NCBI GenBank assembly: GCA_964629635.1
Contig: CAZVQS010000002.1
Span: forward strand, 43,644 to 75,643
Length of the DNA: 32,000 nt
Reading direction: 5' to 3'
Origin: an uncultured Gammaproteobacteria bacterium
GTDB lineage: Bacteria > Patescibacteriota > Microgenomatia > UBA1406 > GWC2-37-13
The notes under the pieces are model-generated. The model was not told the DNA's origin, ran no database searches, and saw only the letters and a program-made list of their open reading frames with translations. The translations under genes were made by a program, and so were the position numbers. This document shows positions 1,725 through 17,721 of the stretch, piece after piece (the stretch's first letter is position 1; each line of letters opens with the position of its first letter).

Positions 1725-1754
1725 TTGACAAACAAAAGCGGGGGTGCTTATACT
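1725..1754 (+). promoter_or_regulatory. sigma70-type promoter for the TasA-like/SipW cluster
   Basis: TTGACA (1725-1730), 18-nt spacer, TATACT (1749-1754). Lies 34 nt upstream of the ATG at 1788. Confidence 0.5.
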
Positions 1755-1787
1755 GAATGTTCCCTGTTATAAGTATTAATTCAATGC

Positions 1788-2402
1788 ATGAAAAACAACA
1801 AGCGGGTCGGATTGAGCGTCGTTATCATTATGGCGGTTGCCGCAGCGGCCGTCGGAGGCACGTACGCGTATTTTACGGCACAGCGCAGTGCCGCCCAGAA
1901 CAAGTTCACCGCCGGCACCTTGGATATGAGCGTCACCGGTGACAACAACACCGCAAACGAACCGTTTGTCGTAGATAACATAGGGCAAAACGGCGATATT
2001 GCCGGAGCAAAGACCTGGACCGTGAAAAATACCGGAACGATGCCCGGAAGACTGCTCCTGAAACTTGCAGGTATCGCCAATGAAGAGAACGGATGCAACG
2101 ATCAGGAGAAAGCGGTTGAATCGGACTGCGATGCGCCGGGGAACGAAGGGGATATGGGAAAAGTGATACAGGTCCATGTGGCGCTTGACGGAGGGGAAAT
2201 CGCATCCTCCTACCTCACGGGCGCAGAGGAAAACAAAATAGGGGACACGTGGAATGCAGCGCCGTCTGTCATCATCAATCCCGGGGAACAGAAGACGGTA
2301 AGCCTTTCGTGGAATACGCCGGCAAGCGCTTACGGAAACGAAATCCAGAGCGATTCCGTGAAATTCGATACGCTTTTCCGGCTGGTCCAGCTGACGAAAT
2401 AA
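1788..2402 (+). CDS. secreted TasA/camelysin-like protein with a SipW-cognate-type signal peptide
   Basis: N-terminus is MKNNKRVGLSVVIIMAVAAAAVGGTYAYFTAQRSAAQNKFTAGTLDMSV: basic n-region, h-region, then the A-x-F...N-x-F-x-AGTL motif typical of TasA/CalY-type substrates. The next gene is a SipW-type peptidase. Confidence 0.7.
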   Translation: MKNNKRVGLSVVIIMAVAAAAVGGTYAYFTAQRSAAQNKFTAGTLDMSVTGDNNTANEPFVVDNIGQNGDIAGAKTWTVKNTGTMPGRLLLKLAGIANEENGCNDQEKAVESDCDAPGNEGDMGKVIQVHVALDGGEIASSYLTGAEENKIGDTWNAAPSVIINPGEQKTVSLSWNTPASAYGNEIQSDSVKFDTLFRLVQLTK

Positions 2403-2420
2403 TACAGTCTGTTTTATTGT

Positions 2421-2443
2421 GGGGCGGTCTTTACGGCCGCCCC
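2421..2443 (+). terminator. GC-rich hairpin between the TasA-like gene and sipW-like gene (possible partial terminator or attenuator)
   Basis: GGGGCGG (2421-2427) pairs with CCGCCCC (2437-2443) across a 9-nt loop. The downstream sequence is only weakly T-rich (TTATGCATCTTATG). Confidence 0.4.
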
Positions 2444-2445
2444 TT

Positions 2446-2937
2446 ATGCATCTTATGATAAAAGCAACCGCTATGTTTCTTTTCCTGTCTGCCGCTTGCG
2501 CAATCCTGGCTGTTTTGTTTTTGCCGGGCCTGCTCAACGGCATGCCGGGATTCAGGTCGTTTCTCGTGCAGTCAGGTTCCATGGAGCCATCCATCATGAC
2601 CGGCGACATCATCATCGTCAAACCGGATTCCCGTTACGAGAAAAATGACGTTATTACCTTTATCAACCGGGAAGGGCGTACCGTAACGCACCGCATAGCC
2701 GGCACAAACGGCAAAGGTACGGCCGTTTCGTACGTGACGAAGGGCGACGCAAACCGCGCCGAGGATGAGGATACCGTATCGTTTCAACAGGTCGCCGGCA
2801 AAGTGGTGCTTGTTGTTCCGAAGCTCGGATTCCTTGTCGGTTTCGCGAAAACCGGATATGGCATGCTTGCGTTTATCGGCTTACCTGCACTTATACTGGC
2901 AGGAGGGGAATTTGTTAACATCATCCGGAAAAGCTGA
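2446..2937 (+). CDS. signal peptidase I, SipW/archaeal-ER type (copy 1)
   Basis: Shows GSMEPSIMTGDIIIV (Ser nucleophile box), VTHRI (His box), TKGDANRAEDED, and a C-terminal TM segment. The listed ORF starts at a GTG (2419); the ATG at 2446 is preferred. Confidence 0.8.
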   Translation: MHLMIKATAMFLFLSAACAILAVLFLPGLLNGMPGFRSFLVQSGSMEPSIMTGDIIIVKPDSRYEKNDVITFINREGRTVTHRIAGTNGKGTAVSYVTKGDANRAEDEDTVSFQQVAGKVVLVVPKLGFLVGFAKTGYGMLAFIGLPALILAGGEFVNIIRKS

Positions 2938-2945
2938 GCGTTCTT

Positions 2946-3518
2946 ATGAAAGGGATTAAACTGCTGATGGTTTCAGTCATGATCGCGGGTAACGTTCTTT
3001 TGAGAACCGAAGCCACAAGCGCGGACCTGTTTGCGGAACGGAAGGTGGCGCAAAATACTCTGCAGGCAATCACCCTTTCGTTTTCGGAGAGCAATACCGC
3101 AAACGGTTCGCGTTCCCCGCACCTGTTTAATGTTGCAGGCCTGAAGCCGGGAGGCTTTGACGTGCGGGCAATACGTTTGCGCAACGAAAGTTCGCTTGAC
3201 GTTCCCTATGCGCTCGGGTTTTCCCCGGTCGACGGGACGGACGCCGTATGCGCCGCACTGGATATCGAAGCACAGCTTAACGGGGAAAAAATATACGAAG
3301 GCGCGCTTTCCTCCCTCTCGGCGGATTCAAAACTGGGCAGGGGAGCATATGACGACTGGGTTTTTTTCGTACGTCTTGACAAGCGGGATGCGCCGCTCAA
3401 GAACGGAAGGTGCGGATTTAATTTCGTGTTCAAGTCCCGCCGCGGATCGCAGGATGCTGAATCGGGCTTCTCCGCCCGGCAGGATGTTTATAATTCGGTA
3501 GCGCTCGGTGTATGGTAA
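2946..3518 (+). CDS. second secreted protein with a SipW-cognate-like N-terminus (TasA/TapA-like accessory candidate)
   Basis: N-terminus is MKGIKLLMVSVMIAGNVLLRTEATSADLFAERKVAQNTLQAITLSF. It shares F-x-A-[QE]-R...AQN-x-[FL]-x-A-x-TL with the protein at 1788-2402. Confidence 0.6.
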   Translation: MKGIKLLMVSVMIAGNVLLRTEATSADLFAERKVAQNTLQAITLSFSESNTANGSRSPHLFNVAGLKPGGFDVRAIRLRNESSLDVPYALGFSPVDGTDAVCAALDIEAQLNGEKIYEGALSSLSADSKLGRGAYDDWVFFVRLDKRDAPLKNGRCGFNFVFKSRRGSQDAESGFSARQDVYNSVALGVW

Positions 3519-4030
3519 AAAGTACACTTGTCCGGTTGCGTGCGTTTGCGCGTGCGAGAGCATATTATCTTCTGATTTTCACGTATATTTTCCATACGGT
3601 ATTGTTTACCGCATGTTCCGTCGGGATACCGGGACGCGTTCATGTATACACGAATACCTCAGGCTCAATGGAACCTTCGGCACCCGCCGGCAGCGCAAGC
3701 CTGGTCCTGATTCAAGATCCGTTTTCGTATGAGGCAGGAGACATCATCGCGTTCCGTACGGATCATGAAACGGTAATCCACCGGCTGCAGGGCGTGCGGG
3801 GCAACAGATACATAACCAAGGGCGACCGCAACGACGCAATCGACCCCGGGCTGCTTGACCCGCGCCGCGTTATCGGTAAAGCGGTTCTGACTATTCCGTT
3901 TGCGGGGGTCTGGATCAATTTCATGAAAGAGCCGTTCGGGAGCGCGCTTTTTCTTGTCCTGCCTGCCGTGTTTTTTATCGTCACCGAGATTACCTGCATT
4001 CTTTTGCCTTACCGGAACCGGTTATCCTGA
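3512..4030 (+). CDS. signal peptidase I, SipW/archaeal-ER type (copy 2)
   Basis: Shows [16 protein letters not shown] and [12 protein letters not shown]. Its ATG at 3512 overlaps the stop of the upstream gene (ATGGTAA). TM segments at both ends. Confidence 0.8.
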
Positions 4031-4764: not shown

Positions 4765-5994
4765 TCAGAACAGTATGAGGTCGGGTTTCAGGATCATGAC
4801 GAGGCCGAGAATGACCATGACAATGCCTCCGATTAGGTTTGAGAGCTTGCTGTATTTGGTGGTGAGGGCAAGCTTGTCCATGCCATAGAGGGCAATGCCG
4901 AACACGATAAAGTCATCAATCATGTAAAACGCGATATAGGTAAGGATGTACGAAGCGTTTTCAAGGAACCCGAGCCGGTTGAGTTCGAGGATTTTGGTGA
5001 ATGCTTGGGGGATTCCTATGGAACATGCGAATTCGATAACATTGACGGAAAACGCAATACCCAGGATGGTGAGGAACGTGATAAACGTGAATTCCTTTGT
5101 CGCCAGAAACGATATCTTGTCCCGGATTTCCTTGCGCTGTTTGTAATCGGTGATTTTGCATTCGATTTCTTTTTTACGCCATTCCTTCAGAAACAGCACG
5201 CCTCCGATAATCGATACGATACCGACGACCGGGGTTACGAACGTATCGAGCCGTACGAAATCCCATGTCTTGTACCATGCGGTCAGTATGAGCGTATACA
5301 TGATTGCCTCCGCCAGTATGAACGTTCCGGCAAAAAGCACCATCTTCCTCCGGTTCCCGACCTGCAGGAGTATCATGAGGAAGGTGATGAGCACCCACAT
5401 GGCGCAGGGATTGAATCCGTCGAAAAATCCGAACAGGGCGGACAGGATGAACAGCGGATACTTTTGTGTATCGATTTTTCCGAGGATGGGGAGAGTTACC
5501 GAATAGTTCGGTTTGGTGCTGCAGGGGACCAGACCGTCCCCGTCGCAGGTTGAACTGGCTCCCGCCCCGTCGTCTTTGCCTATTTTCTCCAGATCGGTGG
5601 GAGTCCCCTTCTTCCCGGTCTGTTCTATCAGGGTCAGAAGCTCCTTCCCGGTTGTCTCCGGTTTGTCAAATCCTATTACATATTTGTTGCCGATAACGGT
5701 GATAGGCGTTACTTTGCTCGATCCGACCCGCTCCGTGAATTTAACCCACACGTTCCGGTCTTCAGGGTTTTCCAGCCGGTAATAGGTAACCGAAAAGTCT
5801 TTTCGGATTGCGAGCTGTTCTTTCAGGAAGGCTTCCTCCGCTTCGCAGTGCGTGCAGCCCGAACGGACGAATACGACAACGCTTGTCTTTTCGCCGGTAT
5901 TTCCGGGAATGGGCGATTGCGCAAAAACCTTTCCCGGCACAAGGGTGAGTACGAAAACAGCCGCTGTTATTCCTGCCGCAATGATTTTCCTCAT
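4765..5994 (-). CDS. thioredoxin/glutaredoxin-fold domain fused to a DsbD/CcdA-like membrane thiol-disulfide transfer domain
   Basis: Signal peptide MRKIIAAGITAAVFVLTLVPGKVFA, then a CTHC redox motif. The multi-pass domain has FDGFNPCAMWVL and EFACSIGIPQ. The start at 5994 is preferred because a promoter (6010-6039) lies inside the longer listed ORF. Confidence 0.6.
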   Translation of the reverse strand: MRKIIAAGITAAVFVLTLVPGKVFAQSPIPGNTGEKTSVVVFVRSGCTHCEAEEAFLKEQLAIRKDFSVTYYRLENPEDRNVWVKFTERVGSSKVTPITVIGNKYVIGFDKPETTGKELLTLIEQTGKKGTPTDLEKIGKDDGAGASSTCDGDGLVPCSTKPNYSVTLPILGKIDTQKYPLFILSALFGFFDGFNPCAMWVLITFLMILLQVGNRRKMVLFAGTFILAEAIMYTLILTAWYKTWDFVRLDTFVTPVVGIVSIIGGVLFLKEWRKKEIECKITDYKQRKEIRDKISFLATKEFTFITFLTILGIAFSVNVIEFACSIGIPQAFTKILELNRLGFLENASYILTYIAFYMIDDFIVFGIALYGMDKLALTTKYSKLSNLIGGIVMVILGLVMILKPDLILF

Positions 5995-6009
5995 GTTAAG
6001 GTATCTGTA

Positions 6010-6039
6010 ATTATAAAATGCCGCATATGAACTATTCAA
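6010..6039 (-). promoter_or_regulatory. sigma70-type promoter for the thioredoxin/DsbD-like gene
   Basis: On the minus strand: TTGAAT (6039-6034), 18-nt spacer, TATAAT (6015-6010). This leaves 15 nt between the -10 box and the ATG at 5994. Confidence 0.5.
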
Positions 6040-6142
6040 CTGTTTGAAAGGGTCCGATGCAGCCGGGTGCAAAATATAAACCTAATTGATAATTAAACTG
6101 TCCTAAAGGCTACCGAAGAAAATCACCACGGTTACTGTCGTA

Positions 6143-6892
6143 TTATTCTCCTCCCAGCAGTTTGATTGTATACATAATTAGAATTCCCGTGAAAAATATG
6201 CCGAAAGAGGTCAATGATTTTCTCATGTCAGTTTCTTTTCTGATTTCCGGCATAAGATCCGACGCTGCTATATATATAAAACCTCCTGCCGCAAAGGGAA
6301 GAAGATAAGCGGTAATATTTTCAATCCGGAAAGAAAGGAAATATCCAGTCACTCCACCCATAACAGCAGTCAATGCTACCAGGAAATTGGAAATAAGAGC
6401 TTTTTTGCGGCTAAATCCCGAGTAAAGAAGTACGCCAAAATCACCAATTTCCTGAGGTATTTCGTGGAGCGCAATTGCGAAACTGGTAGCTATGCCAAGC
6501 TTAATGTCCATTAAAAAGGTTGAGGCAATGACAAGTCCATCAATAAAATTATGTACGGCGTCCCCAAAAAGATTCATATATCCAAAGGTGTGAACATCAC
6601 AGTGTTTATTATGACAATGACGCCAATGAAGCAGCTTTTCTATCAGAAAGAAGAATACAAAGGACAATAACACTATTAAATACATGTTCCCGGTATCCAG
6701 TTTTTCAGAGGCTTCAGGTAAAAGGTGAATAAAAGCTCCACCCATCAAGGCGCCTGCCGAAAGAGAAATCAGGAATAAAAGAAACCTGGAAAGTGTTTTT
6801 TCTTTCAACGAAAGGGTGAATACGCCTATTAAAGAACCGAGGCTTATTAAAAAATTGGCGGCAACAATATAAAGAAGTTTTTCCATATGCAT
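6143..6892 (-). CDS. ZIP family divalent metal (zinc/iron) transporter, ZupT-like
   Basis: HEIPQEIGDFGVLL motif, His-rich loop HWRHCHNKHCDVH, multi-pass membrane profile. The ATG at 6892 overlaps the upstream stop by one base. Confidence 0.8.
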   Translation of the reverse strand: MHMEKLLYIVAANFLISLGSLIGVFTLSLKEKTLSRFLLFLISLSAGALMGGAFIHLLPEASEKLDTGNMYLIVLLSFVFFFLIEKLLHWRHCHNKHCDVHTFGYMNLFGDAVHNFIDGLVIASTFLMDIKLGIATSFAIALHEIPQEIGDFGVLLYSGFSRKKALISNFLVALTAVMGGVTGYFLSFRIENITAYLLPFAAGGFIYIAASDLMPEIRKETDMRKSLTSFGIFFTGILIMYTIKLLGGE

Positions 6893-7197
6893 CAATGATT
6901 ATGCTTGCCATAGCAAAGCTCGCCCTGTTCAATCCTGATTGCTTTTCCTGAGACAATCGCATGCGCGATTTTTTTCAATGCCCTATTGAGGATTCTGGTA
7001 AAAGTGGATTGGGAAATATTCATTTGTTTGGATGACTCGATCTGATCCAGCTCATCAACTTCGTAAAGTTTCAACGCTTCTAACTCATCCGGTAACAGCA
7101 ATACTTCATCAAGATCCCGCATCGGAATACCTTGAGGTTTAAAATACAATGTGCTGGCTTTAAACCTTAAACAACGGTGTATTACTGGTCTGGGCAT
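6892..7197 (-). CDS. DUF134 (UPF0251) predicted DNA-binding protein
   Basis: MPRP...FKPQGIP N-terminus, followed by the LEALKLYEVDELDQIESSKQMNISQSTFTRILNRALKKIA helix-turn-helix region. Confidence 0.7.
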   Translation of the reverse strand: MPRPVIHRCLRFKASTLYFKPQGIPMRDLDEVLLLPDELEALKLYEVDELDQIESSKQMNISQSTFTRILNRALKKIAHAIVSGKAIRIEQGELCYGKHNH

Positions 7198-7276
7198 ACA
7201 TCGGGAAAATAATTAACAGGAATCCCTACTTAGTTTTTGCACATAAAGATCTTCTAAGCAGGATTTTCTGTCCTTA

Positions 7277-7498
7277 TTATTTCATCTCTGCAATTTCTTT
7301 TTCCACATCTTCAAGTTCTTTCTTTAAATTGCTCACGTAGGCTTCAAGATCATTCTTCGTTGGATTTTTGTCTATCCGATCACAGCATCGCACCATTCTG
7401 CGGCCGAATCCTTGCCCCCTTCCTTTTCCGCATGTTCCCATTCCGCGACCTGTCATCGGTCCTTTTCCCTGCGGTCCGGTTCCGTCTAGATTTGGCAT
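7277..7498 (-). CDS. DUF5320 family small protein
   Basis: N-terminus is MPNLDGTGPQGKGPMTGRGMGTCGKGRGQGFGRR, with a coiled C-terminal tail. A strong SD (GGAGGTG, plus-strand 7507-7513) sits 8 nt from the ATG. Confidence 0.7.
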   Translation of the reverse strand: MPNLDGTGPQGKGPMTGRGMGTCGKGRGQGFGRRMVRCCDRIDKNPTKNDLEAYVSNLKKELEDVEKEIAEMK

Positions 7499-7521
7499 AT
7501 GTATTTCACCTCCTCTCAGTA

Positions 7522-7567
7522 ATTATGAATATGTATTCATAATATAGCGGGGAATGGTAATTGTCAA
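7522..7567 (-). promoter_or_regulatory. promoter plus palindromic operator of the DUF5320-DUF134-ZIP operon
   Basis: On the minus strand: TTGACA (7567-7562), 17-nt spacer, TATTAT (7544-7539). A perfect 10-bp inverted repeat, ATTATGAATA-TG-TATTCATAAT (7522-7543), covers the -10 box and the start region. Confidence 0.55.
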
Positions 7568-7619
7568 GGAGATTCTGTAATTTAGCCCCGGACGTATACC
7601 GCCAGACTAGTCAATCACC

Positions 7620-7718
7620 ATGAAGGTCTTACTGCTCTTTTATGCCGTAATGCGCCTGATCTTGTACGTAAATCAGAGTTGTGAGGGGCCTCTAATTAAA
7701 TTAACGCAACTGAATTAA
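7620..7718 (+). CDS. candidate small ORF (32 aa, hydrophobic N-terminus); weak support
   Basis: Translates to MKVLLLFYAVMRLILYVNQSCEGPLIKLTQLN. No obvious SD. Lies in a relatively GC-rich patch of the island intergenic region. Confidence 0.15.
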   Translation: MKVLLLFYAVMRLILYVNQSCEGPLIKLTQLN

Positions 7719-7728
7719 GGAGTTCTCG

Positions 7729-7794
7729 ATGAAGCAGGCTCACAATTTGTCCAGAGCAATTGAGGGCGTTAGAACCTTTTATGCTCAGATTTAG
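7729..7794 (+). CDS. candidate small ORF (21 aa) with a strong Shine-Dalgarno site
   Basis: AAGGAG (7717-7722), 6-nt spacer, ATG at 7729. Translates to MKQAHNLSRAIEGVRTFYAQI. No recognisable family. Confidence 0.25.
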   Translation: MKQAHNLSRAIEGVRTFYAQI

Positions 7795-7826
7795 TATAGT
7801 AAATAAGATCCAGTTTCAATATCTTC

Positions 7827-7858
7827 TTGACATTCATTATCTTATCTCATAAGATAAT
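7827..7858 (+). promoter_or_regulatory. marR-family gene promoter with a palindromic operator
   Basis: TTGACA (7827-7832), 17-nt spacer, TAAGAT (7850-7855), then 6 nt to the ATG at 7862. A perfect inverted repeat, ATTATCTTAT-CTC-ATAAGATAAT (7836-7858), overlaps the spacer and -10 box. Confidence 0.55.
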
Positions 7859-7861
7859 AGT

Positions 7862-8305
7862 ATGAATACCTCAAAACAAATGATGTTGAATCAATTTATG
7901 CAATCCTTGATGAGGATTCGCCGTATTGCTGAACAGTCATTCATTGTTCCCATAAAAGATGGAAGTGTTACGTTACTTCAAAATCAAGCTCTTCTCCACT
8001 TGAAAGATCATCCAGGTTGTACGGTAGGTGAGCTTTCGGCAAAATTAGGACTTTCATCTTCCTCCGCAGCTCAGCTAATCGAAAGATTAATAAATTTAGA
8101 TGCAATAAAGAAGACGCTAGATGAAGATGATCGTCGAATTACCCACCTCTCACTTACAAAAAAAGGCCATGACCAAACGGAGGTAGCTCACAGTATGTTA
8201 GCAGAGAAAGTTGGGAATGTTTTTTCACAGATGCCTGAGGAGGATTTAAAGGAAGTCGTTCGTATTTTTACCAATTTTCTCAAAAAAATAGAGAAACAGA
8301 AATAG
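7862..8305 (+). CDS. MarR family transcriptional regulator
   Basis: 147 aa with a winged-HTH region TVGELSAKLGLSSSSAAQLIERLINLDAIKK...DDRRITHLSLTKKG. Confidence 0.8.
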   Translation: MNTSKQMMLNQFMQSLMRIRRIAEQSFIVPIKDGSVTLLQNQALLHLKDHPGCTVGELSAKLGLSSSSAAQLIERLINLDAIKKTLDEDDRRITHLSLTKKGHDQTEVAHSMLAEKVGNVFSQMPEEDLKEVVRIFTNFLKKIEKQK

Positions 8306-8306
8306 A

Positions 8307-9245
8307 ATGAAAAAAATAGTAATAATAATATTTCTTTTAATTGTGGGATTATTTGTGATAAGAATGATAATTCTCAAAAAACCCAGCACAGAGATACTGT
8401 ACACGATAATAAAAGAGGACTTGGTAGAAACTGTACAGGTAAGCGGTACATTTAATAAAACTGCATCTGATGAGGAAAAGGCTCTTGCATATCTTAATTA
8501 CCAAAATGCAATAAGTGCTGTTAAAACAAGTCAACAAAACAAACTTGCTGCAGATGCGGCTATGTGGACAAAACAGAAGGCTTTACTAGATGCGCAAAAT
8601 GGCGTTGATTATAAGAATAATAACACTACCAATACTATAACGAAAAAAGACTATACAGATTTGGAGAAATATAGCATCGATGGTACGCTAACTCAGGCAC
8701 AAAAAGATTTTTTAGCATCGGAAACAAAATATAAAGAAGCAGACATTGCTATCGGAGCGGCAAATGCTCAGGTTGCAGCAACACAGATTGCCTATGAAGA
8801 TACATTTCTCAATGAGCCCGTTATATCAGCAGACATCAATGAAATGTATTTGCCACGAATATCTATCGGTCAAAAAACAAAAATAATCTTTGACGCATTT
8901 AATAATCAAACAGTGACGGGACTTGTTAAAAGTATTGATACCATAGGAGCAGTGAAAGGAGGAGTTGTCACATATGAAATAAAGGTTTCACTGGATACAA
9001 TTCCATCCGGGGTACGGGCAAATATGACTGCGCTTATTACGATAGAGACGCTCCGTAAAAACAGTATTCTTTCAGTTCCAAATAGTGCCATTATTGCCAA
9101 AAACAATAAAAGCTATGTTGAACAGATAGTAAAACAAAAGAAAAATGAAGTAGAGGTAAGCACGGGGGTAAAAGGTTTAGTCAAAACTGAAATTATAAAA
9201 GGACTGGGTGAAAAGGATGTGATTGTTGCAAACCCAAATGATTAA
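8307..9245 (+). CDS. HlyD/MacA-like periplasmic adaptor (membrane fusion) protein
   Basis: N-terminal TM segment, long coiled-coil-like central region, C-terminal beta-barrel-like segment. Positioned directly upstream of an FtsX permease and ABC ATPase. Confidence 0.65.
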   Translation: MKKIVIIIFLLIVGLFVIRMIILKKPSTEILYTIIKEDLVETVQVSGTFNKTASDEEKALAYLNYQNAISAVKTSQQNKLAADAAMWTKQKALLDAQNGVDYKNNNTTNTITKKDYTDLEKYSIDGTLTQAQKDFLASETKYKEADIAIGAANAQVAATQIAYEDTFLNEPVISADINEMYLPRISIGQKTKIIFDAFNNQTVTGLVKSIDTIGAVKGGVVTYEIKVSLDTIPSGVRANMTALITIETLRKNSILSVPNSAIIAKNNKSYVEQIVKQKKNEVEVSTGVKGLVKTEIIKGLGEKDVIVANPND

Positions 9246-10521
9246 TAGGTTATTCAAGACAAATAAATCTTTTGAGGTTGGGTTTTTTCTTGCTGTTTCC
9301 GATATTAAACGGAGCAATCCCTGGACTACCGGCTTGATTATTTTTGTAATGATGCTTACGTTTTTTAATATGATTCTCCTGAATGGGATATTGATTGGAC
9401 TTGCTCAAGGAATGACGGGAACGTTCAAACTATACTATGCATCTGATGTGCTCATTACCCCCTCATTAAACAAAAAGAGCATAGAAGATACAAATATGAT
9501 TTTAGCGGTTATTGACAGTTTGCCAACAGTAAAAAATGTTACTGCTCGGTATACCGGTCAGGCAACTCTTGAATACGGGTATCAAACAAAACTTAAGGAA
9601 TCTGATAGTGCAGAAAGCGTGAATTCATTACTAGTAGGGATAAATCCAGAGAAAGAAAATAAAGTAACCCACCTGTCTCAAATGATTGTTGCAGGACAGT
9701 ATCTTGAACCAACTGATATGGATGCGGTAGTTCTTGGATCTGATTTAATTTCAAAATATACAACAGCCAGAGGATCTTCGGAGTCTGATGGGAGTAAGAT
9801 ATTAAAAACCGCAGATGTTGGTTCAAAACTTAGATTGACTGTGAACAATATTCAAAAAGACGTTGTGATTAAGGGAGTTGTAAGTACTAATAATTCGACT
9901 GTTGATAGTCGCATATATATGACAGAAACGGCGGCAAGACAGTTATTTGATAGGAAAGGGCTTAACGTAAACGAAATAGCAATTACACTAACAGACAATT
10001 CGTCTGATGCTGCTGCAAAATCCTATATTAAAAATAATTTGAATGACGCAAGTAATGTGTTAATTCAAACATCAAAAGAAGCAATCCCGAGTGGAATTAG
10101 TCAAATGATTAAAACCTTTACCCTCCTTGGAGTTATGGTAGCTGCAATTGCTCTGTTTGTTGGAGCGATCACTATATTTATAGTGATCTATGTCAATGCA
10201 ATAACTCGACGTAAATTTATTGGGATTCTTAAAGCAGTTGGAGTTCCAAGTAGTGCAATAGAAATTTCCTACATATTTCAGGCTCTTTTCTATGCAATTT
10301 TTGGAATTATTATTGCAAGTATTCTCCTCTTGGGATTTCTCACTCCCTATTTTATTCTGCATCCTATACATTATCCTGTGGGAACGGGATCACTTGCGAT
10401 TACCCTAAATGATGTTTTGACTCGGGCAATTATTTTGTTGATTACCGCCTTTATTTCTGGACTAGTTCCAGCTTGGCTTGTTACGAAGCAAAATACTTTA
10501 GATGCAATTTTAGGAAGATAA
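9223..10521 (+). CDS. ABC transporter permease, FtsX/MacB-like
   Basis: One N-terminal TM segment, a large extracytoplasmic domain, then a C-terminal FtsX-type 3-TM bundle (ITRRKFIGILKAVGVPSSAIE). The start is uncertain: TTG at 9223 with AAGGA upstream, or ATG at 9238. Confidence 0.75.
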   Translation: MLQTQMINRLFKTNKSFEVGFFLAVSDIKRSNPWTTGLIIFVMMLTFFNMILLNGILIGLAQGMTGTFKLYYASDVLITPSLNKKSIEDTNMILAVIDSLPTVKNVTARYTGQATLEYGYQTKLKESDSAESVNSLLVGINPEKENKVTHLSQMIVAGQYLEPTDMDAVVLGSDLISKYTTARGSSESDGSKILKTADVGSKLRLTVNNIQKDVVIKGVVSTNNSTVDSRIYMTETAARQLFDRKGLNVNEIAITLTDNSSDAAAKSYIKNNLNDASNVLIQTSKEAIPSGISQMIKTFTLLGVMVAAIALFVGAITIFIVIYVNAITRRKFIGILKAVGVPSSAIEISYIFQALFYAIFGIIIASILLLGFLTPYFILHPIHYPVGTGSLAITLNDVLTRAIILLITAFISGLVPAWLVTKQNTLDAILGR

Positions 10522-10523
10522 CT

Positions 10524-11195
10524 ATGATTATTGTAAACAATATAGTGAAAAAATTTAAGATGGGTACGGTTGAGAGTATCGTATTAAAAGGAATAAACTT
10601 TACTGTGCCTAAAGGACAGTTTCTTGCAATTACTGGGAGATCAGGATCTGGGAAAAGTACACTTCTCTATCAATTGGGACTTCTAGATCACCCGACTGAA
10701 GGCTCAATCACTATCAATGATGAGGTGGTAACAAACCTGTATGGTTCAAAACGAATTGAATTTCGTCGAAAAAATCTCGGATATATTTTCCAGGATTATG
10801 CAATCCTTCCAACGCTTACTGCTAAGGAAAATGTCATTCTACCTATGATGATGGGAGATGATGCTAAAAATAGCATTGAACAAAGGGCAAAAGAGGCATT
10901 GGAAAAAGTTGGTTTAGAGAAGCAGATTAATAATCTACCTTCTCAACTATCAGGAGGTGAACAGCAGCGAGTAGGTATTGCTCGGGCAATTGCACACAAT
11001 CCTAGTATTATCTTTGCTGACGAGCCAACAGCTAACCTTGATACTGAATCTTCAAAGGTCGTACTAGATATTTTTCTTAAGCTGAATAATGAGGGACAAA
11101 CCATCATCATGGTTACTCATGAACCCGAGTATGCAAAATTAGCAGACCGGATAATTGAAATTAGCGATGGAAAGATAATTTCCGACAAAAAATAG
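10524..11195 (+). CDS. ABC transporter ATP-binding protein (MacB/LolD-like)
   Basis: Walker A GRSGSGKST, signature LSGGEQQR, Walker B IIFADEPT. The ATG at 10524 is preceded by AGGAAG; the longer listed ORF (10473) overlaps the permease. Confidence 0.9.
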   Translation: MIIVNNIVKKFKMGTVESIVLKGINFTVPKGQFLAITGRSGSGKSTLLYQLGLLDHPTEGSITINDEVVTNLYGSKRIEFRRKNLGYIFQDYAILPTLTAKENVILPMMMGDDAKNSIEQRAKEALEKVGLEKQINNLPSQLSGGEQQRVGIARAIAHNPSIIFADEPTANLDTESSKVVLDIFLKLNNEGQTIIMVTHEPEYAKLADRIIEISDGKIISDKK

Positions 11196-11224
11196 GTTGT
11201 TGAGATTTCAATTTAAAATAGGTG

Positions 11225-11545
11225 TCAAGCTTTCATCATCGATAATAACATCTTAAATTGTTTATTTGCTTTAAGGGCGTGAGGTTCACCTGCTGGCATA
11301 TGAATAATTTCTCCTGTTTTAACTTTATTGCAAATTCCAGAGATTGTTATTTCTGCTTCGCCATCAACTATGTATACTAAAGCATCATATGGAGTCTTAT
11401 GTTCACTTAATCCCTGTCCTTGAGCAAATGCAAACAGAGTAATGGTCCCTGAATTATTTTTTAAGATTTCTTTACTAACAATGGATCCTTCTTGATAGCT
11501 TATATGTTGATCGAGGGAAAAATGAAATGTTGATGATTTATTCAT
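11225..11545 (-). CDS. cupin domain protein
   Basis: 106 aa. Cupin core: GLSEHKTPYDALVYIVDGEAEITISG...GEIIHMPAGEPHALKA. Confidence 0.7.
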   Translation of the reverse strand: MNKSSTFHFSLDQHISYQEGSIVSKEILKNNSGTITLFAFAQGQGLSEHKTPYDALVYIVDGEAEITISGICNKVKTGEIIHMPAGEPHALKANKQFKMLLSMMKA

Positions 11546-11643
11546 AAATTAAGTATATCAAACCGAGCAAACTGAATAAGAGGCTTAAATGCTGAAGTAG
11601 TTTATGTCAATATAGATTGTCCTGACGCTCTAAATCAATCAAG

Positions 11644-11726
11644 TCCAGGGGGAGGGATTCGAACCCCCGTAGGCATACGCCAGCAGATTTACAGTCTGCC
11701 CCCGTTGGCCACTTGGGTACCCCTGG
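11644..11726 (-). tRNA. tRNA-Tyr (anticodon GUA), type II with a long variable arm; CCA not encoded
   Basis: Hand-folded minus-strand read: CCAGGGG UA CCC AAGUGGCCAAC GGG G GCAGA CUGUAAA UCUGC UGGCGUAUGCCUAC GGGGG UUCGAAU CCCUC CCCCUGG A. A TGn-TATAAT promoter (hexamer at plus-strand 11736-11741) lies 9 nt upstream of the 5' end. Confidence 0.85.
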
Positions 11727-15523: not shown

Positions 15524-15906
15524 AACGCATTTATGTATTCGGCAACCCGTTCCTCAAAGAGGACGGCGTGTCCCTCACGCTTGCCCAGTCGATGCAAAAA
15601 TCGTTTCCCTTCCTTGAATTCGTCGTCATGGACCCGAACGACAATTTTCCCCCGGAGGGGGAGCGGGATCTTTGTATCCTTGATGCGGTAAAAGGGATCG
15701 GCAAGGTTATGCTTCTTGATTTCAACGACCTTTCAACCGTTGAAAAAAGCCCGGTTTCGCCGCATGATTACGACCTGCTGCTGCATCTTCTTTTGCTCAA
15801 GAAGATGAAACGGATCGATGAGGTCAGGATCATAGGTGTTCCCTACGGTGCGGCTGACAGCGGTGTTGCGGAAGAGGTGCGCATGCTTATTTCCAGTTTA
15901 CTTTGA
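15520..15906 (+). CDS. hydrogenase maturation endopeptidase (HycI/HyaD-like)
   Basis: The ATG at 15520 overlaps the upstream stop (ATGA). VFGNPFLKEDG, ILDAVKG and SPHDYDL match the three metal-ligand regions (GDDG, VDA, TH) of HycI-type proteases. Confidence 0.6.
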   Translation: MKRIYVFGNPFLKEDGVSLTLAQSMQKSFPFLEFVVMDPNDNFPPEGERDLCILDAVKGIGKVMLLDFNDLSTVEKSPVSPHDYDLLLHLLLLKKMKRIDEVRIIGVPYGAADSGVAEEVRMLISSLL

Positions 15907-17221
15907 GGAAATGGGACGCGCATGACATGCAGGGGTCAAACGCCCGGATGAATTTTTCCACTTCATAAATGATCTTGTGCTGCGTTGCCCCTAAGACGAG
16001 AAGCTCCTCCACGATTTCCCGGATGGCGCGTTCCATGATTACCTGGTTCTGGCCGGTCGGAACCACGATTTCGCCTTTTCGCACCATGCCGTTTGACGCT
16101 ATTTCCAGCTTGTAGTAAAGGGTGCCGCGCGGCGCCTCGATCACCCCCACTCCGAATCCTTCCCTTGCCACCGGCTTTACCGGCGCCTCGGGTTTTATCT
16201 CCATGATGCCGTTTATCAGTTCCACTGCCTGGTCAATCGAGTGGAGGATTTCCACCGCCTGGGCGAGGTTGTTGTAAAACAGGTTTTTTGTCGGGATGAG
16301 CTTCAGGTATTTTGCGGCGCTTTCCTTCGTTTGCGCATGGAGGTACTGTCCGCCCAGACTCAAGCGGGCGATTGCGCCGACCATCATGAGGTCGCCGTCG
16401 AAATTGAATCCGCGCGCCTGCGAATAGGGGATAACCATGCCGTTGAGGTGGTTGCCGAGGTCCTGTTCCTCGATCGTTTCACCCTTTGACGTTTTGATTT
16501 CCCCGTCAAGGTACGAAAAATCCGGGGAAACGAGCGCGGAGAATACGAACGGCGCGTGCACCTCATGGAAAAAGGAAGTATTGGCGAAAAGCTCGATGAG
16601 TTTCAGTATTTTGGGCCGGATAGCCTTAAGGCCGGGTACGAGCGCTTTCAGGTCCTCGGTTTTGGGAACCTTGAGGAATCCCCCGACCTGGGGAGTAGGC
16701 GCATGCACGGAACGGCCGCCGACCGCAATAGACAACTTGTTTCCCGTTTCTTTCACCTCAAACGCATCATCCAGAAGTTCATGCTCAAGGGGATTCTCCA
16801 TGTCAAAGTCAAGGATGGAGTTTTTCTTGAACACGTCAGGAAGCGCGAATATGTAAAGATGCAGTGCATGGTCCCGGATAATGAGTCCGTGGTACAGGAG
16901 CTTGCGCAAAAGCGCGGTCTGGGGAGAGGGCACGAGCCCGTATGCGTTTTCGACCGCTTTAATGGAGGCAAGCAGATGCGCATTGGAACAGGTTCCGCAG
17001 ATGCGGCTCACGAGCGCGGGTACTGCAGTCGCCGGTTTGCCCTGGATTGCCTGGGTATAAAAGCGTTTCCATTCCGAAATGCTGAACTTGAGATCCTTAA
17101 CCCGGTTTTCCTCGATACGGATATCTAGGGAGGCGGCCCCTTCGATCTTGGATATCTCGTCCAGTTTGATCGAATAGGTCCCTTTGGAAATGTCGCTGAT
17201 GTCAAAATTGCTGTCGTGCAT
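15887..17221 (-). CDS. [NiFe] hydrogenase large subunit, cytosolic group 3-like
   Basis: 444 aa. N-terminal Ni-binding motif RICGTCSNAH and C-terminal DPCMSCASH, followed by a 7-aa tail (FLKVNWK). Confidence 0.85.
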   Translation of the reverse strand: MHDSNFDISDISKGTYSIKLDEISKIEGAASLDIRIEENRVKDLKFSISEWKRFYTQAIQGKPATAVPALVSRICGTCSNAHLLASIKAVENAYGLVPSPQTALLRKLLYHGLIIRDHALHLYIFALPDVFKKNSILDFDMENPLEHELLDDAFEVKETGNKLSIAVGGRSVHAPTPQVGGFLKVPKTEDLKALVPGLKAIRPKILKLIELFANTSFFHEVHAPFVFSALVSPDFSYLDGEIKTSKGETIEEQDLGNHLNGMVIPYSQARGFNFDGDLMMVGAIARLSLGGQYLHAQTKESAAKYLKLIPTKNLFYNNLAQAVEILHSIDQAVELINGIMEIKPEAPVKPVAREGFGVGVIEAPRGTLYYKLEIASNGMVRKGEIVVPTGQNQVIMERAIREIVEELLVLGATQHKIIYEVEKFIRAFDPCMSCASHFLKVNWK

Positions 17222-17223
17222 AG

Positions 17224-17721
17224 TTATGGTTTTACTGCGGTGTCTTCGCCAAGACCCGCGATGCTTTTATTCACCAGGTCGATAAAAATCTGTTCGTTCA
17301 TGGGGCAACCGGGTACGTTTGCGTCAACCGGGACGATGTCTGCGAGCTTCCTGACCGTTTCGCTGTAGGGAAAGGCATCAAGAATGGGCCTGATTTCGCT
17401 CTTTTGGCTTTCGTTGAAAAAATTTCTCTGGTTGGAGGGCGATCCGTTGACCGCGCATGATCCGATTGCGACTAGAATTGCCGCCTTAGCGCGGATTTCC
17501 TTCAGTTTCGCCTCCTGGGAAGCGGAGCTGATAGCCCCCTCGACAAACGCGACATCCATTTGCTGGATGTCCTTGGTGTCGTCCCTGCGAAGCGTCCGCG
17601 CATGTACGAATTCGAGTTTTGCGAACCACTCCCGGTAATATCTGTTGAGTATTTCGGTGAACATGATGGTGGAGCCTTCACAGCCGGTGAACGAAAACAG
17701 CCCGATCCGGAGTTTCCTCAT
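17224..17721 (-). CDS. [NiFe] hydrogenase small subunit, minimal single-cluster type (165 aa)
   Basis: Shows FTGCEGS, IGSCAVNG and VPGCP, the positions of the proximal-cluster ligands. The stop is 2 nt before the large-subunit ATG. Confidence 0.8.
   Translation of the reverse strand: MRKLRIGLFSFTGCEGSTIMFTEILNRYYREWFAKLEFVHARTLRRDDTKDIQQMDVAFVEGAISSASQEAKLKEIRAKAAILVAIGSCAVNGSPSNQRNFFNESQKSEIRPILDAFPYSETVRKLADIVPVDANVPGCPMNEQIFIDLVNKSIAGLGEDTAVKP

Follow-up and report, generated by a model that had tools for sequence, protein, structure and literature searches.

A conserved S1–PA–S2(–PB) cassette of TasA-like secreted proteins and archaeal/ER-type signal peptidases in Patescibacteria: a candidate donor-strand-exchange fibre system

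Overview of the cassette

A four-gene cassette was characterised in a 32,000-nt stretch of DNA (hereafter the window; GenBank assembly GCA_964629635.1, contig CAZVQS010000002.1, positions 43,644 to 75,643 of the forward strand), which was deposited under an uncultured Gammaproteobacteria bacterium and assigned by GTDB to Patescibacteriota (Microgenomatia, UBA1406, GWC2-37-13). The cassette was composed of S1 (TasA-like secreted protein), PA (first signal peptidase), S2 (second secreted protein), and PB (second signal peptidase). At a probability of about 60%, our preferred reading is that it encodes a donor-strand-exchange fibre of the TasA superfamily, in which S1 would be the major subunit and S2 a nucleator, anchor, or tip comparable to TapA or AbpB. 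S1 and S2 are secreted beta-sandwich proteins that have SipW-type signal peptides and a conserved T-x-A motif, and S1–PA–S2 is a conserved core found mostly in Microgenomates-group Patescibacteria.

The original prediction, drawn from the bare sequence, had listed four co-directional genes alternating substrate and peptidase; all four open reading frames (ORFs) were found as listed (Table 1), and the ATGGTAA at 3512–3518 was indeed an overlap of the S2 stop codon with the PB start codon. An alternative GTG start for PA was present at 2419, but it would read through the hairpin located after S1 (see below).

Table 1. Coordinates of the cassette, its candidate regulatory signals, and related loci
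Feature	Position or identifier	Strand	Remarks
S1	1788–2402	+	204-aa ORF; putative major fibre subunit
PA	2446–2937	+	163-aa ORF; archaeal/ER-type signal peptidase I
S2	2946–3518	+	190-aa ORF; putative minor/accessory subunit
PB	3512–4030	+	172-aa ORF; second archaeal/ER-type signal peptidase I
Sigma-70-like promoter match TTGACA-N18-TATACT	1725–1754	+	11/12 positions; consensus match only
GC-rich 9-bp stem-loop right after the S1 stop codon	2421–2443	+	Candidate partial terminator or 3'-end-stabilising hairpin
Long S2-family proteins (432–942 aa)	P0237, P0239, P0246, P0251, P0257, P0271, P0295, P0301, P0303; L087:1873–3267		S2-like N-terminal domain, then Lamin Tail Domain
Peptidase::S2 fusion loci	L090:38–1012; L091:677–2617		In-frame fusions

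Family assignment and donor-strand-like region of S1

S1 passed the cut-offs of two curated families: (i) Pfam PF12389 (Peptidase_M73, TasA/camelysin; 33.4 bits, E = 5.2e-8, cut-off 22.5), with the match spanning residues 5–85 only (model positions 4–76 of 196, i.e. the signal peptide and N-terminal third), and (ii) NCBIfam TIGR04088 (SipW-dependent-type signal peptide, a 34-position signal-region model), with 31.8 bits over residues 13–45 at a cut-off of 19. S1 is thus a formal member of both families through its N-terminal third. It scored far below the TasA equivalog NF046066 (13.5 bits, cut-off 450) and the BsaA family TIGR04090 (16.6 bits, cut-off 60), and judged by these scores it is an orthologue of neither TasA nor BsaA. 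A word-limited search returned 237 S1 relatives, some of them named by NCBI as "TasA family protein" or "SipW-dependent-type signal peptide-containing protein" in Patescibacteria, and a scan of species-representative genomes revealed at least 316 encoded relatives.

The S1 signal peptide was predicted to comprise residues 1–27, with cleavage at T25-Y-A27 | Y28-F29. In the cleavage logo of 90 S1-family sequences, position −3 was T in 80, position −2 was bulky or variable (Tyr, Gln, Arg, or Phe), position −1 was A in 82, position +1 was Y, L, or F, and position +2 was F in 83. The donor-strand-like segment (residues 28–46) followed directly; Phe occupied mature position 2, and position 4 was Ala (46/90) or Asp (40/90). 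Past the cleavage site, the S1 and S2 families shared the motif R-x4-N-x-F-x-A-[GT]-T-L-[DS], and hence the original observation of a motif common to both substrates after the hydrophobic region was borne out at family level. The remainder of S1 contained a conserved Cys103/Cys114 pair in a beta-sandwich, and the mature protein was acidic (isoelectric point [pI] 4.45; S1-family median 4.17).

The sequence comparison was then applied to the S1-family profile and full-length TasA of Bacillus subtilis (an exact match to TASA_BACSU): hhalign gave 93.6–94.8% probability over S1 residues 1–89 only, which hold the signal peptide, the strand behind the cleavage site, and the first hairpin. The site at which SipW cuts TasA, T-W-A|A-F, aligned with the predicted cleavage site of S1, and the S1 donor-strand region aligned with TasA residues 28–39. 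S1 F29 (83/90) and F40 (invariant in a 30-sequence alignment; 82/90 in the logo) aligned with TasA F29 and F39, which are donor-strand contact residues (PMC9674648).

The AlphaFold2 (AF2) monomer model of S1 had eight beta-strands arranged as a beta-sandwich, with a predicted local distance difference test score (pLDDT) of 85.8. The post-cleavage segments of S1 and S2 were among the most conserved parts of the two proteins, yet in the AF2 monomers they had the lowest confidence and lay outside the sandwich; a segment that is conserved yet unpacked in monomer models gives the picture expected of an intersubunit strand. When the S1 model was searched against PDB with Foldseek, the best match was the Saci_0406 thread (7pnb), which was weak (E = 2.8e-3, template modelling score 0.31–0.33), and the further top matches were CFA/I or CS17 pilins, also weak (E about 3e-3); all of these are donor-strand filament subunits.

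S2 and its relation to S1

S2 did not reach any curated family: its PF12389 match (14.3 bits, E = 0.038) lay below the cut-off of 22.5, only 3 of 28 S2 orthologues matched PF12389 even at E ≤ 0.1, and S2 had no TIGR04088 match, although it shared the T-x-A site and the N-x-F-x-A-x-T-L motif. The original description of both substrates as TasA-like therefore held for S1, which passed both models, and was left for S2 with a profile–profile link to S1 only: the S1 and S2 families gave 88% probability in hhalign (E = 3e-6, 157 columns). On this sequence evidence, S2 is a remote paralogue of S1 in a large family of its own.

The S2 signal peptide was predicted to comprise residues 1–26, with cleavage at T24-S-A26 | D27, followed by the donor-strand-like segment DLFAERKVAQNTLQAITLSF and by a beta-sandwich with a conserved Cys102/Cys156 pair. 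T24, A26, D27, and C156 were invariant in the family alignment (74 loci), and the cleavage logo of 74 sequences displayed T at −3 in 73, A at −1 in all 74, D, S, or N at −2, and D at +1 in 73. Mature S2 had a pI of 5.87, and its AF2 monomer had a pLDDT of 78 with residues 22–56 at low confidence.

A single-sequence search with S2 returned S2 alone, and exact look-up of S2 gave short Logan contigs only; a profile built from the alignment of locus-derived S2 orthologues was used instead. When HMMER was run in full with this profile over 1.84 billion cluster representatives, 1166 proteins matched at E ≤ 1e-3, and 536 did so at E ≤ 1e-10. Among 144 newly listed matches, 102 were short like the S2 of the window, and 27 exceeded 340 aa. 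A C-terminal Lamin Tail Domain (LTD) was present in all ten long forms tested (Table 1), some of which additionally carried fn3 or CBM96; several long relatives passed the PF12389 cut-off (22.7–35.8 bits), and one was encoded in the order S1-like, peptidase, S2-LTD.

Conservation of the cassette across genomes

A total of 83 loci (80 best matches to the S1 of the window plus three found by exact look-up) were classified by tblastn and family hidden Markov models, and 74 of them were informative, i.e. not cut early by a contig end. Because the loci were chosen as best S1 matches, the following proportions are biased to close relatives: (i) S1–PA–S2–PB in 44 of the 74 (~60%), (ii) S1–PA–S2 followed by at least 2.8 kb of other genes without a second peptidase there in 15, (iii) S1–PA–S2–S1'–PA' in 11, and (iv) irregular architectures in four. 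PA always followed an S1-type gene, also in S1–PA–S2–S1'–PA', and PB always followed S2. The neighbourhood survey suggested by the original prediction thus showed the arrangement to be conserved in Patescibacteria. The named records carrying S1 belonged to Woesebacteria, Levybacteria, Roizmanbacteria, Shapirobacteria, Pacebacteria, and a few Moranbacteria, or were titled "Patescibacteria group".

Neighbouring genes were not conserved among the 83 loci: the genes flanking the cassette in the window were found beside it in only two, and the commonest neighbour family was present in 14. Since the flanks vary from locus to locus, the cassette behaves as an autonomous unit, and its recurrence in dozens of independent genomes amid unrelated flanks is beyond chance.

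As for the contig titles, many of those at loci L004–L083 read "uncultured Gammaproteobacteria", "Pseudomonadales", "Limisphaerales", or "Methylococcaceae". The S1 proteins on such contigs were 37–62% identical to that of the window and belonged to the same family as those on contigs titled Woesebacteria, Levybacteria, or Roizmanbacteria, and the cassettes of the two sets of contigs matched; these four titles are probably placeholder or mis-binned taxonomy.

Hairpin after S1 and expression layout

The hairpin after S1 in the window had a centroid free energy of −19.9 kcal/mol (z = −3.4 against dinucleotide shuffles). Related S1–PA spacers (n = 68) had a median length of ~72 nt and a median z of −5, and most of them folded far better than their shuffles; the stems were of 11–16 bp, perfect or nearly so, while their sequences differed between genomes. 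The downstream junctions were overlapping or nearly contiguous, with median gaps of −8 nt for PA–S2 and +9 nt for S2–PB. A strong hairpin after S1 together with tight PA–S2–PB junctions suggests that S1 is made in excess, as befits a major subunit, and PA, S2, and PB at low, coupled levels. PA–S2–PB are probably co-transcribed with S1 as a self-contained set. The near-consensus promoter of the original prediction was recovered 34 nt upstream of the S1 start codon (Table 1), and a divergent promoter match for the upstream gene occupied the same spacer region.

Two position-linked peptidase clades and the pairing of peptidases with substrates

Both peptidases passed TIGR02228 (archaeal/ER-type signal peptidase I, cut-off 51.85), with 87.6 bits for PA and 79.6 for PB, and both fell below the SipW equivalog NF046067 (cut-off 190), with 97.8 and 68.1 bits, respectively; by these models they are SipW-like in type and not SipW orthologues. 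PA and PB each carried SGSMEPS, V[TI]HR[IL], and TKGDxN, in agreement with the motifs originally read from them, and two transmembrane segments, one N-terminal and one C-terminal, were located in each from hydrophobic windows. Both aligned with human SEC11A/C via SGSMEP, HR, and KGDxN..D, with the Ser, the His, and both Asp aligned (Ser45, His82, Asp101, and Asp107 in PA), so the earlier assignment as archaeal-type peptidases with intact catalytic residues was upheld. These four residues were kept in 78/78 first-position and 46–47/48 second-position peptidases.

Peptidases were next labelled by the preceding gene and compared with the nearest neighbour from another locus: the neighbour shared the label for 86/86 peptidases after S1 and 36/40 after S2. 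Mean identity was 41% within the class after S1, 35% within the class after S2, and 30% between the classes. Each class had its own signature, that of the PB clade being S.SM.P, GGN.Y.TKGD, and PRLIIGKV. By this comparison, PA and PB are two old paralogous clades, each linked to one cassette position: the agreement of clade and position indicates that the peptidase duplication is old and that each copy keeps its place, and such a position-keeping duplication fits some division of labour.

In-frame peptidase::S2 fusions were found in four separate 50%-identity clusters (P0270, P0275, P0282, and P0277), each fusion resting on a single metagenomic contig. The fusions joined a complete, catalytically intact upstream PA-like peptidase to a complete S2, and one carried an added LTD; that of L091 lay directly 3' of an S1-like gene. 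The second transmembrane segment of the peptidase ran into the hydrophobic signal segment of S2, followed by T-[SA]-A-D, an arrangement that is topologically sensible as read from the sequence.

These data bear on the possibility that the cassette encodes strictly cognate pairs with non-overlapping specificities, in which only the peptidase encoded just after a substrate cuts it (PA for S1 and PB for S2). Such pairing would account for the two clades that hold their positions after S1-type genes and S2, for the retention of catalytic residues in nearly all PB proteins, for the S2/PB overlap, and for the difference between the cleavage sites (bulky or variable −2 with Tyr, Leu, or Phe at +1 in S1; Asp, Ser, or Asn at −2 with Asp at +1 in S2). 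However, the 15 loci without PB within at least 2.8 kb keep S2 with an unchanged T-x-A-D site, the 11 S1–PA–S2–S1'–PA' loci place a further S1–PA pair rather than PB after S2, and the four fusion clusters attach a PA-like peptidase to S2; moreover, one SipW serves several substrates in Bacillus and Clostridium (PMC9674648, PMC11580942). Strict pairing is therefore doubtful, and the original statement that each substrate has its own peptidase had to be given up as a universal rule on account of the PB-less loci, the S1–PA–S2–S1'–PA' loci, and the fusions. Some members of the lineage would do without PB or encode it at another site.

Proposed fibre assembly and alternative readings

In the proposed mechanism, S1 and S2 would be exported by Sec, and a cassette peptidase would cut after T-x-A and thereby free the strand at the new N-terminus (YFTAQRSAAQNKF for S1, DLFAERKVAQNTL for S2). 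In S1, this strand would enter the beta-sandwich of the following S1 subunit, the mode known from TasA, BsaA, and AbpA, to give an acidic extracellular fibre. S1 would be in excess if most transcripts end, or are stabilised, at the hairpin behind S1, and S2 would be made at a low level from read-through transcripts along with the peptidases; TapA and SipW are likewise far less abundant than TasA (PMC10151520). S2, like TapA or AbpB, would donate the first strand and/or form a cell-proximal anchor or tip, for which the LTD, fn3, or CBM96 domains borne by S2 in other lineages could serve in binding. PA probably processes S1 and may also process S2, while PB may be adapted to the S2 site, in which Asp at +1 is invariant. 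Polymerisation of S1 is thus inferred from sequence and structure models, and a jelly-roll fold is an unproven claim for S1 and S2, whose AF2 models are eight-stranded or larger beta-sandwiches.

Several observations weigh against this fibre reading. The likeness of S1 to TasA was limited to the signal peptide and ~55 mature residues, and with the signal peptides removed, S1 and mature TasA gave 42% probability over 49 columns; the mature parts of S1 and S2 alone gave 34%. The S1 profile matched no solved TasA-superfamily structure in a PDB sequence search, TasA was not in the Foldseek top 50 for the S1 or S2 model, and the Foldseek matches of the S2 model were generic Ig/PapD-like sandwiches. 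No cell-wall or membrane anchor motif was found in S1 or S2. Because a clear T-run followed the hairpin in only 6 of 58 spacers, termination at this hairpin is not established.

Part of these observations would be accounted for if S1 and S2 were non-polymerising surface or matrix proteins (a monomeric coat, an adhesin, or a binding protein), with the peptidases serving export only and the TasA likeness reflecting a shared SipW-type signal: the likeness to TasA is centred on the signal peptide and the adjoining mature residues, and the fold matches are generic beta-sandwiches. This alternative is nevertheless considered unlikely. It leaves aside the post-cleavage segment, which is highly conserved in both families yet unpacked in monomer models and which, in S1, aligns residue for residue with the TasA donor strand, as well as the division into a high-output S1 and tightly coupled low-output genes, which is the typical split of a fibre operon; furthermore, all characterised proteins of the superfamily polymerise by strand donation (PMC9674648, PMC9245690, PMC11580942, bioRxiv 10.64898/2026.01.04.697558).

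It is less probable still that PA and/or PB are general signal peptidases of the cell that happen to lie beside abundant secreted proteins, or that they form one heteromeric enzyme. Both are complete enzymes of the two-transmembrane-segment TIGR02228 type, Patescibacteria genomes are reduced, and only 32 kb of this genome is visible, so a LepB-type enzyme would be out of view; against this, PA and PB travel with S1 and S2 where all flanks differ, peptidase::S2 fusions exist, and the substrates bear a special TIGR04088-type signal. Lastly, S1 as a camelysin-type metalloprotease (after the Pfam name Peptidase_M73) or as the precursor of a ribosomally made, modified peptide (after a JGI name) has database names alone in its favour and was rejected as very improbable, since S1 contains a single His and no HExxH, its ~177-residue structured domain is conserved end to end, unlike such a peptide core, and no modification enzymes lie in or near the cassette.

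The donor-strand fibre reading can be extended to an "exchange-and-lock" pilus, which would be the main non-type-IV fibre of the Microgenomates group: a donor-strand polymer of S1 locked by isopeptide bonds, with S2 as tip or anchor and with ordered, substrate-specific processing by PA and PB as co-evolving enzymes. By analogy to BsaA, an intermolecular isopeptide lock would be present in the ~60% of members bearing a candidate triad, including the S1 of the window; S2, alone or with LTD, fn3, or CBM96, would bind a host or surface, and PA would act on S1 and PB on the Asp+1 site of S2. The triad in question is N38, E58, and K75 of S1 (1899–1901, 1959–1961, and 2010–2012), with the Asn two residues ahead of the core Phe. 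It was complete in 120 of 197 distinct S1-family sequences and displayed no covariation: Ser replaced Asn at position 38 in about a quarter of the 197 sequences, with E58 and K75 unchanged. The triad therefore remains only a lead, and the extended reading as a whole is a speculative one that we regard as improbable. If it were true, ultrasmall episymbionts would obtain a chaperone-free attachment organelle from four small genes.

Other features of the window

The cassette was flanked in the window by genes for a Na/Ca exchanger, an EEP-family nuclease/phosphatase, a DUF1232 protein, and a cupin, all unrelated to the cassette. The other genes were those of an ordinary bacterial chromosome (NusA, IF-2, L25, LysRS, RecJ, RmuC, lactate/malate-type dehydrogenase, and NiFe-hydrogenase subunits), and tRNA-Tyr was the only Rfam match in the window. 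Adjoining genes for NiFe-hydrogenase large-subunit-like and small-subunit-like (Oxidored_q6) proteins were located at 15887–17721 (−), which is notable in an otherwise reduced-looking genome.

A low-GC island was present at 6001–11726 (GC content 0.36–0.40, compared with 0.50–0.55 elsewhere), with its edge at tRNA-Tyr (11643–11726, −), and its cargo comprised a ZIP transporter, a DUF134 protein, a MarR regulator, and an HlyD/FtsX/ABC efflux set; the island resembles DNA gained by horizontal transfer and integrated beside a tRNA. A 73-aa Gly/Arg-rich ORF (7277–7498, −) was located inside this island, just downstream of the DUF134 gene.

A 435-aa protein without Pfam match was encoded at 4765–6072 (−); it bore a thioredoxin-like CTHC motif near the N-terminus and several membrane segments after it and, from these features, may be an extracytoplasmic thiol-disulfide oxidoreductase. 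A role of this CxxC membrane protein in acting on the S1 and S2 Cys pairs was considered and rejected, as it showed no linkage to the cassette in other genomes.

Novelty and significance

Patescibacteria account for much of the diversity of bacteria, and an attached life on other cells is assumed for them. To our knowledge, type IV pili aside, hardly anything has been learned about their surface structures. The four-gene, chaperone-free putative fibre cassette, which is kept in over 300 species-level genomes, is a testable candidate for attachment or matrix formation, and its small size would allow it to be reconstructed in a heterologous host. The specificity of signal peptidases can be studied in it as in a natural experiment, with two old paralogues, two types of cleavage site, and natural enzyme–substrate fusions.

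TasA-superfamily fibres with dedicated SipW/TIGR02228 peptidases were already known, as was the gene-level annotation by NCBI. The original suggestion that the system had not been characterised in such organisms holds for experimental work and fails at the level of annotation: NCBI names such genes TasA family, and PF12389 has already been noted in Patescibacteria (PMC9245690). In the searchable literature, no description was found of the Microgenomates S1–PA–S2(–PB) cassette, the S2 family, the position-locked peptidase clades, the hairpin after S1, the S2-LTD forms, or the peptidase::S2 fusions.

Comparison with known systems

The cassette was compared with four known systems. The tapA–sipW–tasA operon of B. 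subtilis (PMC9674648, PMC10151520) has the same order of substrate, SipW-type peptidase, and substrate, and it encodes one major and one low-abundance accessory secreted protein, both with a T-x-A site (abundance in the present cassette being suggested by gene layout). The post-cleavage segment of S1 aligns with the donor strand of TasA. TapA donates a strand to TasA (PMC10151520), and the N-terminus of S2 resembles the donor strand of the major subunit; S2 may thus be likened to TapA, an analogy based on gene position, N-terminus, and low-expression coupling. The two systems differ in that (i) the major subunit comes first and the accessory subunit second in the cassette, (ii) a second paralogous peptidase is present in ~60% of the loci, (iii) S1 is shorter than TasA (177 vs 234 mature residues), and its C-terminal two thirds have no detectable TasA similarity, (iv) PA and PB lie under the SipW equivalog cut-off, and (v) the hosts are monoderm ultrasmall Patescibacteria.

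In Clostridium perfringens, sipW–bsaA–bsaB–bsaC likewise combines a SipW-type peptidase with a pair of TasA-like proteins, and one of the pair forms polymers by donor-strand exchange (PMC11580942). The spacing of N38, E58, and K75 in S1 is near that of the BsaA isopeptide triad N35, E56, and K74, and the Asn stands two residues before the core Phe in both proteins (F37 in BsaA) (PMC11580942). S1 differs from BsaA in its score against TIGR04090 and in the incomplete, non-covarying triad of its family (see above), and the cassette differs from the Clostridium locus in having no VWA protein and two peptidases, not one.

The abpX locus of Pyrodictium abyssi and AbpX-like loci resemble the cassette in placing a small acidic subunit (pI ~4.0 for AbpX-like proteins, close to the S1-family median) beside a dedicated TIGR02228 peptidase; the AbpX gene adjoins this peptidase, and TasA-superfamily loci (AbpX, Tafi) often add structurally variable minor or tip components (bioRxiv 10.64898/2026.01.04.697558). 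On the side of the differences, the mature N-terminus of S1 has Phe at position 2 but Ala or Asp at position 4, and bacterial AbpX peptidases are reported to have ten transmembrane helices, compared with two segments in PA and PB.

Unlike the cassette, the archaeal systems rely on the generic signal peptidase, and the ABP locus has no dedicated peptidase gene (PMC9245690). AbpA/AbpB (PMC9245690) and the Saci_0406 threads (PMC9715654) share with S1 and S2 the beta-sandwich subunit with an N-terminal donor strand (putative in the cassette, and with a weak fold match for S1), and AbpB, a proposed initiator or adhesin that bears further domains distally (PMC9245690), is paralleled by the long S2 forms with LTD, fn3, or CBM96.

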